DNA of 64,000 bases from Armatimonadota bacterium (GTDB lineage: Bacteria; Armatimonadota; Fimbriimonadia; Fimbriimonadales; GBS-DC), in assembly GCA_037445735.1 (NCBI GenBank), contig JBBIJY010000014.1, positions 1 through 64,000 on the forward strand. Direction: 5' to 3'. Positions 2,888-59,110 of this stretch are shown here, one piece after another. Within the stretch, counting starts at the first letter, position 1. The number at the start of each line of letters is the position of its first letter. The notes under the pieces are model-generated. The model had not been told where the DNA came from. It saw only the letters and a list, made by a program, of their open reading frames with translations, and searched no databases. The translations under genes and the position numbers were made by a program.

Positions 2888-4456
2888 ATGTATCTGCTGG
2901 CGCTCGATCTGGGCACATCGGTGTGCAAGGCGGCGATTCTGTCCGCCCGCTGTGAGATTGTTCAGCTGGAGCAGGCGCCGCTGGAGCTGCACCTGCTGCC
3001 GAACGGGGGCGCGGAGCAGAACCCGCACGAGTGGTGGCGCACGCTCACGCAACTGGTACAGCGGCTGGTCGATTCGGCAGGCGTGCCAGTGGAGCAGATT
3101 CGCGCCGTCAGCTGCGCCTGCCAGTGGTCCAGCACGGTTGTGATCGATGAAGCGGGCGAGCCGCTGGGCAACGCCATCCTCTGGATGGACACGCGCGGCG
3201 CGCCCTATGTGCAGGAGCTGATAGGTGGCTTCCCCGCGTTTGAAGGCTACAGCCTGCGCAAGCTGTTCACATGGGTGCGGCTGACGGGTGGTGCGCCCGC
3301 CCGCTCGGGCAAAGACCCCATCGCGCACATTCTCTATCTTCAGCGCGAGCAGCCCGACCGCTATTGCGCGGCGGCGAAGTTCCTGGAACCAGTGGACTAT
3401 CTCAACTTTCGGCTGAGCGGCGTTCTGTGTACCTCGCCCGAAGCCATCACGCTGCACTGGCTGACCGACAATCGCGATTTGCGGCGCGTGGAGTATCACC
3501 CGACGCTGTTGCGCTGGGCAGGGATTGACCGCGCGAAACTGCCCGATATTCGGCGGGGTGGGCGCATCCTCGGTGCGCTCCGCCCGCAGGTGGCGCAGGA
3601 GTGGGGGCTTGGTCCTGACACGCAGGTGATTGCGGGCGTGCCCGACATCCACGCGGCGGCGGTCGGCTCCGGCGGTATCGCCGATTATGACCCTCACCTC
3701 TACATCGGCACCTCCGCATGGCTCAGCTGCCATGTACCGTTCAAGAAGACCGATTTGCTGCACAATATGGCGTCGCTGCCCGCCGCGCTGCCCGGTCGCT
3801 ACTTCGTCGCGAACGAGCAGGAGACCGCGGGGATGTGCCTCACCTTCTTGCGCGACCATCTCTTCTTTGCGTCGGACGGTCTGACGGGTGCGGCGCCGCA
3901 GGACGCCTATGCGCGTTTTGACGAGCTGGCGGCGCAGGTGCCGGCGGGCAGTGCGGGGTTGCTGTTCACCCCGTGGCTGTATGGCGAGCGCACGCCAGTT
4001 GAAGACCATGCCATTCGGGGCGGGTTCCATCATCTGTCGCTCCGGCATCAACGGGCGCACATGGTGCGGGCGGTGCTGGAGGGTGTCGCGCTGAACCTGC
4101 GCTGGCTGCTGCCCTATGTGGAGCGGTTCGCGGGTCGGCGGTTCGCGCAGATTCGGGCGATTGGTGGCGGTGCGCGATCCGCGCTCTGGTGCCAGATTCT
4201 GGCGGATGTGCTGAACCGCCCGATTGCGCAGATGGAGTTGCCGGTGGCGGCGCCGTTGCGGGGTGTGGGGCTTCTGTGTGCGCTGGAGCTGGGCTGGCTC
4301 GCGCCTGATGAAGCTGCGCGATGCCTGCCCGTTCAGCAGCGGTTCCAGCCCGATGCGGCGCGTGCCCGCCTGTATGACGCGCTCTTCCGCGAGTTTCGCG
4401 CGCTCTATCGCGCGAACCGCCCCATCCACGCCCGCCTGACCGCCCTCCTGCGGTGA
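2888..4456 (+). CDS. FGGY-family carbohydrate kinase (xylulokinase-like)
   Basis: LALDLGTSVCKA, AILWMDTR, YIGTSAW, PWLYGERTP, RAVLEGVA and GGGARSALWCQILADV motifs. Confidence 0.9.
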   Translation: MYLLALDLGTSVCKAAILSARCEIVQLEQAPLELHLLPNGGAEQNPHEWWRTLTQLVQRLVDSAGVPVEQIRAVSCACQWSSTVVIDEAGEPLGNAILWMDTRGAPYVQELIGGFPAFEGYSLRKLFTWVRLTGGAPARSGKDPIAHILYLQREQPDRYCAAAKFLEPVDYLNFRLSGVLCTSPEAITLHWLTDNRDLRRVEYHPTLLRWAGIDRAKLPDIRRGGRILGALRPQVAQEWGLGPDTQVIAGVPDIHAAAVGSGGIADYDPHLYIGTSAWLSCHVPFKKTDLLHNMASLPAALPGRYFVANEQETAGMCLTFLRDHLFFASDGLTGAAPQDAYARFDELAAQVPAGSAGLLFTPWLYGERTPVEDHAIRGGFHHLSLRHQRAHMVRAVLEGVALNLRWLLPYVERFAGRRFAQIRAIGGGARSALWCQILADVLNRPIAQMELPVAAPLRGVGLLCALELGWLAPDEAARCLPVQQRFQPDAARARLYDALFREFRALYRANRPIHARLTALLR

Positions 4457-51985: not shown

Positions 51986-52402
51986 TCAACCCTGCACACA
52001 GCGCAGGTGAACCCAGCCGCGGTTGGCATCGCGGGTGATGGGTTCGCCGACGGCAATCGTCTGGCGGCAGATGCGGCAGAAGCCCTCATAGCGGGCGGGG
52101 ATACTGTGCTGAACGGGAGCGTTCATGCAGTCCACATGCACCCAGCGCCCACTTCGAGCGTGGCGCGTGATCAGCGCACCCTGTTGAATCGGTTGCAGGC
52201 AGGCGGGGCAGGTGCCCTCATAGCGAGCAAAGAGCAGCGGTGCACCCGCTTCCAGCAACTGCTCGTGTTGCTCCGTCAACAGGGCGAGCAGCTCACTGGC
52301 AAGGAGATCGATCTCTATAACCGACTCGTTCGATACGCGCGGAGGCGACTGATCTGGTTTGCCCTGCTCGACCCAGCGGCGATTTTCCGGGATTGGCTTC
52401 AT
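51986..52402 (-). CDS. Protein with two tandem CxxC...HxxC zinc-finger repeats
   Basis: ARYEGTCPACLQPIQQGALITR...GRWVHVDC and ARYEGFCRICRQTIAVGEPITR...RGWVHLRC. Its ATG overlaps the upstream stop codon (ATGA). Confidence 0.8.
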   Translation of the reverse strand: MKPIPENRRWVEQGKPDQSPPRVSNESVIEIDLLASELLALLTEQHEQLLEAGAPLLFARYEGTCPACLQPIQQGALITRHARSGRWVHVDCMNAPVQHSIPARYEGFCRICRQTIAVGEPITRDANRGWVHLRCVQG

Positions 52403-53889: not shown

Positions 53890-54339
53890 CTATCCGCGTC
53901 GCCAGCGTTCAAACGCCTTCTTAATGAGTTCGCAAACGCTCAGCAGGGAATGCCCTGCCAGCGGGTTCGCTGCAGGGTGCCACTCGTGGATATGCAGGCA
54001 GCAGGCGGTCCAGCCCTTCAGTGCCGGCGGCGCCTCACGGAACTGACCCCGATTGGGGTCATAGGAGGTGTCGCCGTAGAACACATGGGGCGGACGCTGC
54101 CCGTTCGCTAAGCGCAGGTTGTAATCCACATAGAACCAGTCGGGTGGGGTCTGGGGGTAGTGACGCGGCAGCAGGATCAGCACATCAGTGGTGGTGTAGT
54201 TGTAGCCACGGGGGAGCGGGAAGTCGTGAATGATGACCCACTCCCCGTCCTCGTCGTCATAGGAGGCTTGCTTCGTCTGCGAGTAGTGCGTCGCAGCGAG
54301 CGCCGCCTCGTAGGCGATCCGCTGCAGGCGTGTGTTCAT
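53890..54339 (-). CDS. Prokaryotic E2/UBC-like conjugating enzyme (family E-like)
   Basis: WVIIHDFPLPRGYN, LILLPRHYPQTPPDWFYV, LRLANG and WTACCLH...W.P resemble prokaryotic E2 family E and the E2 YP..PP...CL pattern. Confidence 0.8.
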   Translation of the reverse strand: MNTRLQRIAYEAALAATHYSQTKQASYDDEDGEWVIIHDFPLPRGYNYTTTDVLILLPRHYPQTPPDWFYVDYNLRLANGQRPPHVFYGDTSYDPNRGQFREAPPALKGWTACCLHIHEWHPAANPLAGHSLLSVCELIKKAFERWRRG

Positions 54340-54369: not shown

Positions 54370-54570
54370 TTAGCCGATACCGTCCTCCCAGCGCGGCAGC
54401 TCGGTGACGGCGGGTGCGCGGCGCACCACTTCCTGCGGCGTGGTCGGCTGAGATGGAGTGATCGGCGTGTTCAGCGTGGTCGGGTCGTTCGTGGTCGCAG
54501 GCGTCAGCGTAATCTCATAGTCGATGCCGTTCAGGCGAACCTTTTCCTTAACCGCGTTACCTGTTGGCAT
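54370..54570 (-). CDS. 66-aa Gly-terminated peptide, candidate modifier or substrate of the E1/E2/JAB operon
   Basis: GAGGTG RBS before ATG 54570, GGGGTATAAT upstream, host-like codons, ends PRWEDGIG*. Confidence 0.7.
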   Translation of the reverse strand: MPTGNAVKEKVRLNGIDYEITLTPATTNDPTTLNTPITPSQPTTPQEVVRRAPAVTELPRWEDGIG

Positions 54571-54588
54571 ATGGAACACCTCACCCCT

Positions 54589-54611
54589 ATTATACCCCAA
54601 ACCTCTGTCAA
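54589..54611 (-). promoter_or_regulatory. Promoter of the ubiquitin-like operon (GGGGTATAAT -10)
   Basis: Perfect TATAAT at 54589-54594. TTGACA lies only 11 nt upstream, so it is doubtful as a -35. Confidence 0.6.
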
Positions 54612-54716
54612 GAGTTCCCTGCAAAGGGGAGAAAAAATCCCGTTTCGCCTCCCAGAGGCATCGATAAAGCAGGAAAAGGGTGGCTGGCTGACGAATCATC
54701 CACACTGTGAGGTGAG

Positions 54717-56684
54717 ATGATGGAGACGATGCAGACCACAACGGCGATTGAGGCGTTGTTGCAGGAGCAGCGGGTCTTCCCGCCTTCGGACGAGTTTGTG
54801 CGACAGGCGAATATCAGCGATGCGGCTATTTATGAAGAGGCGGCGCGCGACTATGAGGCGTTCTGGGCGAAGTGCGCCGAGATTCTCGACTGGTATCAGA
54901 GATGGCACACGGTGCTGGAGTGGAACCCGCCCTATGCGAAGTGGTTTATCGGCGGCAAGCTGAACGCCTGCTACAACTGCGTGGATCGGCATGTGAAGAC
55001 ATGGCGGCGCAACAAAGCCGCGCTCATCTGGGAGGGCGAGCCAGGCGAGGAGCGCGTGCTGACCTACAACGACCTCTATCGCGAGGTGCAGAAGTTCGCC
55101 AATGTGCTGAAGGCGCTGGGCGTGCGCAAAGGCGACCGTGTCTGCATCTATATGCCGCTCATCCCCGAAGTGGTGATTGCGATGCTGGCGTGCGCGCGAA
55201 TCGGTGCGCCCCATTCGGTGGTGTTCGGCGGGTTCAGCGCGGAGAGCCTCTCGGATCGAATCAACGACGCGCAGGCGAAGGTGCTGATCACCGCCGATGG
55301 CGGCTGGCGCCGCGGCTCGATTGTGCCGCTCAAGCGCAACGCCGATGATGCCCTGCGCAACACGCCCTCCATCGAGAAAGTGGTTGTCTATCAACGCATT
55401 GGCGGCGACTACACCGTGCCGATGCAGCAGGGGCGCGACCTCTGGTGGCACGAGCTGATGGCGAACGCACCGCTCACCTGCGCGCCAGAACCGATGGACA
55501 GCGAAGACCTGCTCTATCTGCTCTACACCTCCGGCTCCACAGGCAAGCCGAAAGGCATCATGCACACCACCGGCGGCTACCTTGTGGGCGTTGCCCTCAC
55601 CACCCGATGGGTTTTCGACCTCAAGGATGAAGACATCTACTGGTGTACCGCCGATGTGGGCTGGGTCACAGGGCACAGCTATATCGTGTACGGTCCGCTG
55701 GCGAACGGGGCGACCTGCGTGATTTACGAGGGCGCACCCGACTATCCCGACCGCGACCGATTCTGGGCGATAGTGGAGAAATATCGGGTGAACATCCTGT
55801 ACACCGCGCCGACCGCCATCCGCGCCTTCATGAAGTGGGGCGAGGAGTACCCGCGCCGCCACGATCTGAGCAGCCTGCGCCTGCTGGGCACCGTCGGCGA
55901 ACCTATCAACCCCGAAGCGTGGATGTGGTACCACGAGCATATCGGCGGCGGACGCTGCCCGATTGTCGACACATGGTGGCAGACCGAGACGGGCATGATT
56001 ATGATCACGCCGCTACCCGGCATCGTGGCGACCAAGCCCGGCTCCGCCACCAAGCCGTTTCCAGGGGTGTTCCCGGACATCTTCGACGAGCAGGGCAACC
56101 CGGTGCCGCCGAACAGGGGTGGCTATCTGGTGCTGACACGCCCCTGGCCGGCGATGACGCGCGGGCTGTACGGTGACCCCGAACGCTTCCAGCAAATCTA
56201 CTGGAGCCGATACCCCGGCATCTATTTCACGGGCGACGGCGCCAAGCGCGATGAGGACGGCTACTTCTGGCTGCTGGGGCGCGTGGACGATGTGATCAAT
56301 GTGTCAGGGCATCGCCTCAGCACGATGGAAATCGAAAGCGCGCTGGTGGATCACCCGGCAGTCGCCGAAGCCGCCGTCATCGGTAAATCGCACGAGATCA
56401 AGGGTCAGGCGGTGGCTGCCTTCGTGATTATCAAAGAGGGCTACACCGCCGATGAGCGATTACGCGAGGAACTCAAGCAGCATGTGGTGGCGAAAATCGG
56501 CGCGCTTGCCCGACCCGATGATATTATCTTCACCGCCGACCTGCCCAAAACGCGCAGTGGCAAGATTATGCGTCGCCTGCTGCGCGATGTGGCGGAAGGG
56601 CGCGCACTGGGCGACACCACCACTCTCGCAGACCCCGCCGTCGTGCAGGCGCTCAAAGAGAAATACGAGGGTCAGGAAGAGTAG
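54717..56684 (+). CDS. acs: Acetyl-CoA synthetase
   Basis: [48 protein letters not shown] and [15 protein letters not shown] motifs. Confidence 0.97.
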
Positions 56685-58375: not shown

Positions 58376-59110
58376 GTGGAAGAGCCAGTTAAGCGCTCTG
58401 ACGCTGTGGAAAAAGAGTACACACAAGCTGTCATCTATGGTCTGCTGGGACTGGTGATGCTGCTGCTAACATGGCTGTTCTGGCGCTATGGGGGCATGTT
58501 CTACTCCTTCTCGTGGGGTTTCGGGCTGGTGTGGCTCGGCTCGTGGGTATATGCGGGCTGGTCGCTCTATAAAACGCGCAACATACCTGCCTATCCCGTG
58601 AGCTGCCCCTACTGCCAGAAGGAGAATGTGTTCGTGGCGCCGCCGCAAAGCGATTTCACCTGCGAACACTGTCGGCGGCTCGTGCCGGTGGAGAACGGGC
58701 ATGTGCTGGAGGTGGTGACGGTGCGTTGCCCCCACTGCCGCGCCACCGAGCAGGTCTCGCCCCGCGCCCGAACCGCCATCTGCGAGCATTGCCAGCGCGA
58801 GTTCAGCGTGGTCGCCCCCACACAGACGCAGGTCTCGATGCCCCTGCCGCAGGACGACCCCACACCCTACGAACTGGTGCTGCTCGGCGTGGAACGCCTG
58901 AAGGAAGAAGAAGCCATTGCCCATCTGGAGTCGTTCCTCACCCTCACCCGACCCGATGTGAAGAAACTGCTCCAGAGTGCGCCCGTGGTCATTCTGACCA
59001 ATCTGCCACGCCGAAAAGCCGAAATGCTGGTCAAAGACCTGCAGCAGTGGGGCATCAAAACGGAGATACGGGCGATCGAGGATCCGAGCCGCGTGCCCAC
59101 ACCATGGTGA
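58376..59110 (+). CDS. Membrane protein with four CxxC motifs and an L7/L12-CTD-like tail
   Basis: Two TMs, CPYC, CEHC, CPHC, CEHC, and tail YELVL...VKKLLQSAPVVIL.NL...KAE.L. Confidence 0.7.
   Translation: MEEPVKRSDAVEKEYTQAVIYGLLGLVMLLLTWLFWRYGGMFYSFSWGFGLVWLGSWVYAGWSLYKTRNIPAYPVSCPYCQKENVFVAPPQSDFTCEHCRRLVPVENGHVLEVVTVRCPHCRATEQVSPRARTAICEHCQREFSVVAPTQTQVSMPLPQDDPTPYELVLLGVERLKEEEAIAHLESFLTLTRPDVKKLLQSAPVVILTNLPRRKAEMLVKDLQQWGIKTEIRAIEDPSRVPTPW

Follow-up and report, generated by a model that had tools for sequence, protein, structure and literature searches.

The window analysed here is a 64,000-nucleotide stretch of an Armatimonadota genome (GCA_037445735.1, contig JBBIJY010000014.1, positions 1 to 64,000). 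The gene under study is a 66-residue open reading frame (ORF) at the head of a four-gene operon, followed by genes for a Prok-E2_E-type E2, a JAB–E1 fusion and a double zinc-finger protein. By sequence comparison, the enzymes of this operon are closest to those of the Bub ('6E') bacterial ubiquitination-like pathway. We favour, with moderate confidence, a reading in which the small ORF encodes a fold-less modifier that occupies the BubA position of a Bub-like cascade and that would be trimmed by the JAB domain, activated by the E1 domain, passed to the E2 and conjugated. The parts of this reading differ in strength. That the ORF is a real protein-coding gene we consider virtually certain, and its functional tie to the E2 and JAB–E1 genes very probable; that its product is a substrate of the JAB domain, cut at Gly64, appears likely, and its adenylation and conjugation would be expected from the enzymes encoded beside it.

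The small gene and its C-terminal glycine

Translation of the minus strand at 54370–54570 (ATG at 54568–54570, stop codon at 54370–54372) gave exactly the 66-residue protein that an earlier note, made from the DNA letters, had put forward as the first gene of an operon with its own ribosome-binding site. Both of those points held, and gene order puts the gene at the position of a ubiquitin-like protein (Ubl; BubA) in an E2/JAB–E1 operon; a Shine–Dalgarno-like sequence precedes the ATG (Table 1), and GGAGG or GGGGGT occupies the same position in other loci. The note had also advised checking small ORFs upstream of homologous E2 genes. A scan with the E2 protein as sole query, one genome per species, recovered 28 loci, 25 of them in metagenome-assembled genomes of Armatimonadota/Fimbriimonadales. 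An intact small ORF of 61–78 aa, with an ATG start and a Shine–Dalgarno-like sequence, stood directly 5' of the E2 gene in 27 of these, ending anywhere from 4 nt inside to 87 nt before the E2 start, and the C-termini aligned on Gly64.

The family is under purifying selection acting on the protein frame. The median ratio of nonsynonymous to synonymous change (dN/dS) was 0.18 (329 of 351 pairs, pS>0.15, where pS and pN are the proportions of synonymous and nonsynonymous differences). A control with nine sequences of equal length gave 0.086 in frame 0 (35 pairs) and 1.19 in frame +1 (12 pairs), with zero usable pairs in the third frame. Constraint was equal in the hairpin and the tail described below (pN 0.16 in each, vs pS 0.54 and 0.56), with a slightly less constrained middle region (pN 0.23). 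The family is conserved in at least two phyla, and all indels are in-frame. An alternative 123-aa frame with a TTG start at 54741 is present in the window; the segment that it adds shows no conservation at the protein level and coincides with a promoter-like DNA motif in related loci. The note's warning that gene callers could mis-start the ORF is matched by two database entries (P0003 and P0004) that bear N-terminal extensions.

As a separate observation, the DNA upstream of the small ORF is itself conserved in the window and 10 further loci, where GGGAACTTTT is followed after a spacer of ~12–17 nt by TGGGGTATAAT. This arrangement has the look of a promoter common to these loci, of the extended −10 type, and its GGAAC element is presumably similar to the −35 boxes of extracytoplasmic function sigma factors. 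A consensus promoter scanner reported zero minus-strand sites for this DNA.

Table 1. Features of the operon and of the small ORF in the window
Feature	Position	Strand	Basis
Small ORF P0001 (candidate modifier precursor), 66 aa + stop	54370..54570	-	Translation, conservation, dN/dS
Residues 7-22, predicted beta-hairpin KEKVRLNGIDYEITL	54505..54552	-	AlphaFold2 and alignment
Residues 50-64, conserved C-terminal recognition tail ...APAVTELPRWEDG to invariant Gly64	54379..54423	-	Alignment, family table, modelled JAMM contacts
Residues 65-66 'IG', unconserved tail, predicted JAB removal	54373..54378	-	Family table
Shine–Dalgarno-like GGTGAGGTG, 6 nt 5' of the small-ORF ATG	54577..54585	-	Read from sequence
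Promoter-like conserved DNA, GGGAAC(T)... then TGGGGTATAAT; TATAAT 54589-54594	54589..54619	-	11 upstream regions aligned
E2-like protein (Prok-E2_E / BubB-like), 149 aa; D67, motif C114-L-H116	53890..54339	-	Pfam, BubB match, alignments
JAB(JAMM)-E1 fusion (BubCD-like), 495 aa	52399..53886	-	ThiF, BubCD match, alignment
Fourth gene, 138 aa: N-terminal (K/R)PIPxNRRW, helical linker, two C2HC zinc fingers	51986..52402	-	Alignment, model

Thirteen positions were invariant in 27 aligned sequences (M1, E9, V11, N14, P24, N28, E47, P53, L58, P59, W61, D63 and G64), and none of the columns past G64 was conserved. In a family table of 39 members, 38 of them distinct, ...LPxW(E/Q/R)DG was present in all 38 distinct sequences, followed by 0 (four sequences), 1 (two), 2 (20), 3 (eight), 4 (three) or 6 (one) residues that formed 22 different tails. 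The functional end is therefore expected to be Gly64 and not Gly66, because the invariant glycine is followed by 0–6 unconserved residues and four sequences stop at it. The earlier note had left both glycines as candidates for the active end. The 'IG' tail was confined to the window protein and its 99 %-identical relative (L001), so that the terminal 'IG' and Gly66 are, on this alignment, lineage-specific. Within the hairpin E9, V11 and N14 were invariant and E19, I20 and L22 at least 90 % conserved. The proline-rich character noted earlier was confirmed (9 Pro, 14 %, in the window protein; 8–15 % across the family), and the mature, Gly-ended length was 54–68 aa in all but three members.

Database searches recovered few relatives. 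The window protein had no match in Pfam, NCBIfam or PADLOC, no usable match in a protein atlas search, and, when it alone was the query of a word-index homology search, one relative, 95 % identical. A profile of the family searched against 1.84 billion representative proteins (E<=1e-3) gave 16 matches, three of which (P0012, P0015 and P0016) stop exactly at ...WEDG; all matches other than P0013, P0008, P0010 and P0011 retain the C-terminal tail. P0013, of 1117 aa, was rejected as a relative, being an Ig/cadherin-repeat protein with a short common motif (hhalign 0.5 %). The only PDB matches of the profile, TyrR (0.014) and a CoA-disulfide reductase (1.2), were taken as chance, and two Pfam families, Beta-barrel_GLAA-B_II (18 of 27 members, best 0.0045) and DUF7157 (4 of 27, best 0.13), were judged to reflect short-motif likeness.

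Partner enzymes and structure models

The JAB–E1 protein matched Pfam ThiF (8e-36) and, weakly, Prok-JAB. Its best solved match was Citrobacter BubCD (4e-33), which covered both domains over residues 7–408, with MoeB (1.5e-20) and MccB (1.4e-10) also among its solved relatives. The JAMM residues E32, H96, H98, S107 and D110, the GxGGxG motif and two CxxC pairs were invariant in 17 of 17 JAB–E1 sequences. So was Y386 (GYIQGE) in the crossover loop, which lacks a conserved Cys; the sole Cys residues near it are those of the CxxC zinc pairs. GYIQGE aligns on GYITG of BubCD, and by our own count of the alignment Y386 corresponds to Y370.

A complex of full-length JAB–E1 (17-row alignment), ATP, Mg and residues 1–64 of the small protein was modelled, scoring 0.79 in three of three runs, with 0.00 for the best of three controls. 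In a benchmark, 58 of 80 solved complexes attained that score, as did 2 of 110 mismatched pairs; since the alignments and ligands were our own, these counts apply here only roughly. The three runs agreed in at least 51 % of contacts, with a predicted local distance difference test (pLDDT) of at least 48 for the partner. The confident interface joined residues 50–55 and 57–64 of the tail to JAB residues 32, 34, 69–76, 78–79, 82–83, 85–86, 94 and 96, as well as 107, 109–110, 113 and onward. The modelled tail follows a JAB strand, and its residue 63 contacts H96 and K34 near the catalytic site. The model supports recognition and trimming of the small protein by the JAB domain. The earlier note had suggested co-folding the tail with both the ThiF and JAB domains, and only the JAB active site received it; since the modelled tail is absent from the adenylation site, the case for E1 activation is one of homology and gene order.

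AlphaFold2, run on the small protein with the 27-sequence alignment, returned a mean pLDDT of 72 and a predicted template modelling score (pTM) of 0.26. It placed a hairpin (strands 7–13 and 16–22), as the earlier note had anticipated from the sequence, followed by coil, with no helix and no further strands. Pfam Multi_ubiq matched none of the 27 family members and none of six distant members at E<=10, whilst it matched three of four plasmid proteins in the same operon position (2e-12 to 6e-7). When the family profile was compared by hhalign with 10 Multi_ubiq proteins, the probability was 0.1 % in global and 1.7 % in local mode, the latter superposing hairpin on hairpin; this test has little power because only four Multi_ubiq relatives were found and the 10-sequence profile is shallow. 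A beta-grasp is thus undetectable in the small family, a statement about predictions and not about a determined structure.

The E2 gene begins 30 nt after the small ORF, and its product matched Prok-E2_E (PF14462, 6.9e-14). The best solved match of its profile was Citrobacter BubB (4e-7), with D67 aligned on BubB D299. His116 is invariant, and Cys-x-His is present in 19 of 20 aligned E2s and in two further loci, L055 and L065 (21 of 22); only L028 has Ser-x-His. Elsewhere, Ser-x-His occurs in proteobacterial and Deinococcus E2s and Cys-x-His in haloarchaeal ones. Across the E2 genes of the window, of L028 (4001–4417) and of the plasmid loci L057–L064, the residue two before the invariant His thus divides Bub-type E2s into a Cys group (the window clade and haloarchaeal plasmids) and a Ser group (L028 and the proteobacterial and Deinococcus plasmids), and thioester and oxyester versions may coexist among them. 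A search for distant loci with the E2 alignment returned the same clade and three loci (L050–L052).

Proposed pathway and alternatives

In the pathway that we propose, the precursor is a protein of ~60–78 residues with one beta-hairpin at the N-terminal end, then an extended stretch rich in proline, and a tail of the form ...(R)VPx(V/I)xxLPxWEDG. The JAMM domain of JAB–E1 would bind this tail as a beta-strand, as modelled, and cut after Gly64, freeing 'IG'; genes that already stop at Gly would need no trimming. The E1 domain would then adenylate Gly64 and relay it through Tyr386, as its homology to BubCD suggests. The modifier would pass to C114 of the E2, where Cys-x-His stands at the Ser-x-His position of BubB, and would finally be transferred to lysines of target proteins. 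A wider scheme, which we put forward only tentatively, would be a ubiquitin-type cascade with a dedicated, largely unfolded modifier of ~60 residues, modular PIPxNRRW partners and spare modifier/E2 cassettes served in trans by one JAB–E1.

Several observations weigh against this proposal. In every characterized E1 of the Bub, Bil and eukaryotic systems, to our knowledge, the surface bound is that of a beta-grasp, and a grip on a hairpin and a coil would need an explanation of its own. The modelled tail lay in the JAB site and not in the adenylation site despite the ATP and Mg supplied, and the JAB docking may in part be the model's memory of solved complexes between JAMM domains and ubiquitin tails. 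The fold of the partner is itself uncertain (pLDDT 48–50 in the complex, with the low AlphaFold2 pTM given above), and the lack of a beta-grasp is a prediction from a shallow 27-sequence alignment, backed by the length and proline content of the family. At the 28th locus (L023) the small ORF carries a premature stop, CAG to TAG at codon 14 relative to near-identical relatives, and three database proteins (P0008, P0010 and P0011) match the N-terminal ~40 residues only and then diverge, in the manner of frame-shifted calls. DUF6527/BubE, which every described Bub operon has, is also missing here.

The first alternative to be weighed retains the modifier function and changes its ancestry. The small protein could be a true, extremely reduced beta-grasp Ubl, a collapsed BubA/Multi_ubiq that folds on binding or by pairing of chains; it would then belong by descent with the ubiquitin-like proteins and would not be a novel type of tag. 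It has the operon position of multiubiquitin genes, its hairpin V-x-(V/I)-N-(D/G)-x-x-(F/Y)-E-(I/V) is similar to the Multi_ubiq pattern F-x-V-(D/G)-x-x-x-(F/Y)-E-T, with which the local alignment paired it, and a glycine followed by a short variable tail is an ending in common with Multi_ubiq proteins. The absence of any Multi_ubiq match where most plasmid counterparts had one, the low hhalign values, the short proline-rich mature form and a model without helix or extra strands make this descent unlikely in our view. The earlier note had proposed a Ubl collapsed to its first hairpin and tail; the prediction of a hairpin and nothing more agrees with it, whereas descent from a ThiS/Ub beta-grasp was not borne out. 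The small protein could also be an unconjugated regulator or pseudo-substrate, sitting in the JAB active site or bridging E2 and JAB–E1, with another protein as the real substrate. That the JAB domain is the sole confident modelled interface, no E1 docking having been obtained, is what this account would predict. A plug, however, needs neither an invariant Gly before unconserved residues nor forms that stop at Gly, the hairpin is constrained as strongly as the tail, and the window genome has no other candidate for a Bub-type Ubl; we give a regulator a shade less weight than a reduced Ubl.

Two further explanations fare worse. MccB, one of the solved relatives of JAB–E1, is an E1-like enzyme that acts on a peptide C-terminus, and the small protein, being mostly unstructured, could by analogy be the precursor of a natural product or modified peptide, adenylated at its C-terminus by the E1-like domain with JAB as maturation protease. 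Such a product would not account for the dedicated E2 with Cys/Ser-x-His that always adjoins the gene, conservation runs over the whole 60 residues without a leader/core split, and the neighbours are housekeeping genes with no transporter or immunity gene nearby, all of which render a peptide product improbable. That the ORF arose by chance, or is a 5' leader without a protein product, might be entertained for an ORF known here from DNA sequence alone in a GC-rich genome with many spurious ORFs. It is scarcely credible given the dN/dS and frame control reported above, the conservation across phyla with in-frame indels only, and the Shine–Dalgarno sequence and ATG kept in 27 of 28 loci.

Fourth gene, distribution and comparison with known systems

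The fourth gene overlaps JAB–E1 by 4 nt. Its residues M1, P3, I4, P5, N7, R8 and R9 were invariant in 16 sequences, and its C-terminal module varied. Most loci encode two C2HC zinc fingers; additional paralogues found in L002 and L003, together with the L028 gene, have by eye a hydrophobic, membrane-helix-like stretch and no zinc fingers, and the L065 gene encodes a membrane helix with a WD40 propeller. In most loci the C-terminal tail of JAB–E1 carries a similar KPIPxPRG, so the two motifs may represent a common docking peptide, and one could speculate that fourth-gene products dock on the machinery as adaptors or substrates. No Foldseek match of the zinc-finger model reached E<=1e-3; those that came nearest were RING, PARP and LIM fingers at 0.011 to 0.1. 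A role as a 'RING-like E3' is not established, given these weak matches and a zf-ANAPC11 score of 24.4 bits, below the 25-bit cut-off. There was no match to PF20137 (DUF6527) at E<=1.

The operon is flanked by housekeeping genes (amidohydrolase, acetyl-CoA synthetase, histidine kinase and others) and does not lie in a defence island. The window genome, 99.2 % complete, in which the small ORF and the E2 each occur once, has no match to Multi_ubiq or DUF6527 at E<=1. Elsewhere in the window, a gene at 58376–59110 (+) encodes a protein of 244 aa that has four CxxC pairs and a membrane-like N-terminus and belongs to no Pfam family at 1e-5. Outside Armatimonadota, a Thermoflexus (Chloroflexota) contig (L055) carries the small ORF (...DLPRWEDGGRA), the E2 and JAB–E1 in that order; just upstream of the small ORF and divergent from it is a gene for another, distinct ThiF-like protein (535 aa; 704–2311, −). 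A metagenome contig (L065) carries a small ORF ending exactly at ...PSWEDG, then E2, JAB–E1 and the fourth gene; its JAB–E1 frame is broken in two (1757–2962 and 2978–3190), which may reflect a frameshift or faulty assembly. The second match of a locus scan for distant small proteins, in Sediminibacterium (L056), covered 19 residues. In an even phylum sample of 401 genomes, strong matches were restricted to the window's own family, in three of its three genomes including that of the window, and two weak matches (E ~3–4e-3), over profile positions 32–62 within long frames, are probably due to chance. Viral contigs gave 218 pattern matches and zero relatives of the small protein.

In five assemblies a full operon is accompanied by a second cassette, an 'orphan' that lies on a different contig or at a distant chromosomal site (L016, L018, L020, L021 and L027, set against full operons L014, L024, L022, L008 and L019). 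The cassettes consist of the small ORF and E2 alone in L018, L020 and L027, with a zinc-finger gene added in L016 and L021, and none contains JAB–E1. This suggests that one JAB–E1 serves several modifier/E2 pairs.

The window genome also has a second small-tag system, unrelated to the operon, on contig C3 (L066 and L067, ~C3:96409–101112). It includes two genes of the Pup-ligase family (1e-155 and 2e-127), a UBact gene of 62 aa whose product ends in ...RQRSGE (PF20513, 2.3e-23), and two ORFs that by eye resemble alpha and beta subunits of the proteasome.

Operons of the kind to which this one is closest were tabulated by Iyer et al. in 2006 as row 6e, comprising a polyUbl, an E2/RWD-like protein, a JAB–E1 fusion and a metal-binding protein (PMC1779556), and were renamed Bub by Ye et al. 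in 2024 (PMC11601596). In the latter account, BubCD's JAB domain cuts the precursor BubAB after a conserved Gly, the E1 has no catalytic Cys, in place of which it employs an invariant Tyr of the crossover loop, the E2 relies on Ser-x-His plus Asp, and DUF6527 (BubE) is present in all Bub operons (PMC11601596). The consulted portions of the operon surveys describe the dedicated modifiers of Bub and Bil operons as always having 1–3 beta-grasp domains (10.1101/2024.11.21.623966), with CBASS (cyclic-oligonucleotide-based anti-phage signalling system), in which a whole enzyme is conjugated, as the known exception (PMC11601596).

Compared with type I Bub (6E.1: BubAB, BubCD and BubE), the window operon has the same JAB–E1 with intact JAMM, Cys-less crossover loop and invariant Tyr, a Prok-E2_E/BubB-type E2 with Asp and x-His, a metal-binding fourth protein and a modifier precursor with a conserved Gly at the JAB cut site, a site presumed here. 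The modifier is a separate gene of ~60 aa without a detectable beta-grasp, whereas BubA has 1–3 beta-grasp domains and is fused to the E2; none of the 16 profile matches among the 1.84 billion representatives was an E2-fused form of the small protein, the only long match being the rejected P0013. The E2 nucleophile position is predominantly Cys here, as counted above, vs Ser in BubB. In place of BubE there are PIPxNRRW proteins bearing C2HC fingers, a membrane helix or WD40, and no regulator gene of the CapW/CapH/CapP type, nor a kinase gene, adjoins the operon.

The nearest annotated homologues are plasmid operons of rhizobia, Deinococcus and Phenylobacterium, whose JAB–E1 proteins are 31–34 % identical to that of the window and whose first three genes stand in the same order. 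They encode a multiubiquitin (a separate gene of 83–100 aa), an E2/UBC and a ThiF protein, then mostly a phosphotransferase, then DUF6527. Their Ubls end in ...PPATFG with 0–4 variable residues or stop at the Gly, the same precursor logic. They differ from the window operon in a first gene with a Pfam Multi_ubiq beta-grasp, in an E2 with Ser-x-His, and in the DUF6527 and, mostly, phosphotransferase genes.

The type II CBASS pair Cap2/Cap3 likewise combines a bacterial E1/E2 with a JAB peptidase acting on the C-terminus of a protein that is not a beta-grasp (as summarized in PMC11601596). In CBASS it is the large signalling enzyme itself that becomes conjugated, and the E2 and E1 are fused, whereas the window has a dedicated mini-protein, a separate E2 and a JAB–E1 fusion. 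With Pup and UBact the small protein shares a size of ~60 aa, predicted disorder over most of its length and a conserved C-terminal motif as its business end. Pup and UBact are attached by PafA-type ligases through a C-terminal Glu, whereas the window protein has a C-terminal Gly and is encoded beside E1, E2 and JAB; the small protein had no Pup or UBact match in Pfam. The earlier note's term 'Pup-like' thus holds as an analogy of disorder and fails as an identity, the genome having its separate cluster of UBact, Pup ligase and proteasome genes. The conserved C-terminal Gly is common to ThiS, MoaD and ubiquitin modifiers, whose beta-grasp fold AlphaFold2 did not predict here.

The literature searched, with the supplementary operon tables of the Bub preprints outside that search, described no fold-less modifier in such operons and no Armatimonadota/Thermoflexus clade. 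The present loci extend Bub-like pathways to Armatimonadota and Chloroflexota, with Cys at the E2 nucleophile position and a non-DUF6527 fourth gene. If our proposal is true, a fold-less tag would separate what E1, E2 and JAB recognize, the tail, from what the beta-grasp contributes, the ubiquitin fold would be dispensable for E1/E2-mediated protein tagging, and a minimal thermophile system would be at hand for structural work. Because Arg precedes the final WEDG in most members, trypsin should leave a diagnostic WEDG on modified lysines. In sum, the operon is Bub-like machinery with three differences, namely a mini-modifier in which no beta-grasp is predicted, a Cys-type E2 and a different fourth gene.

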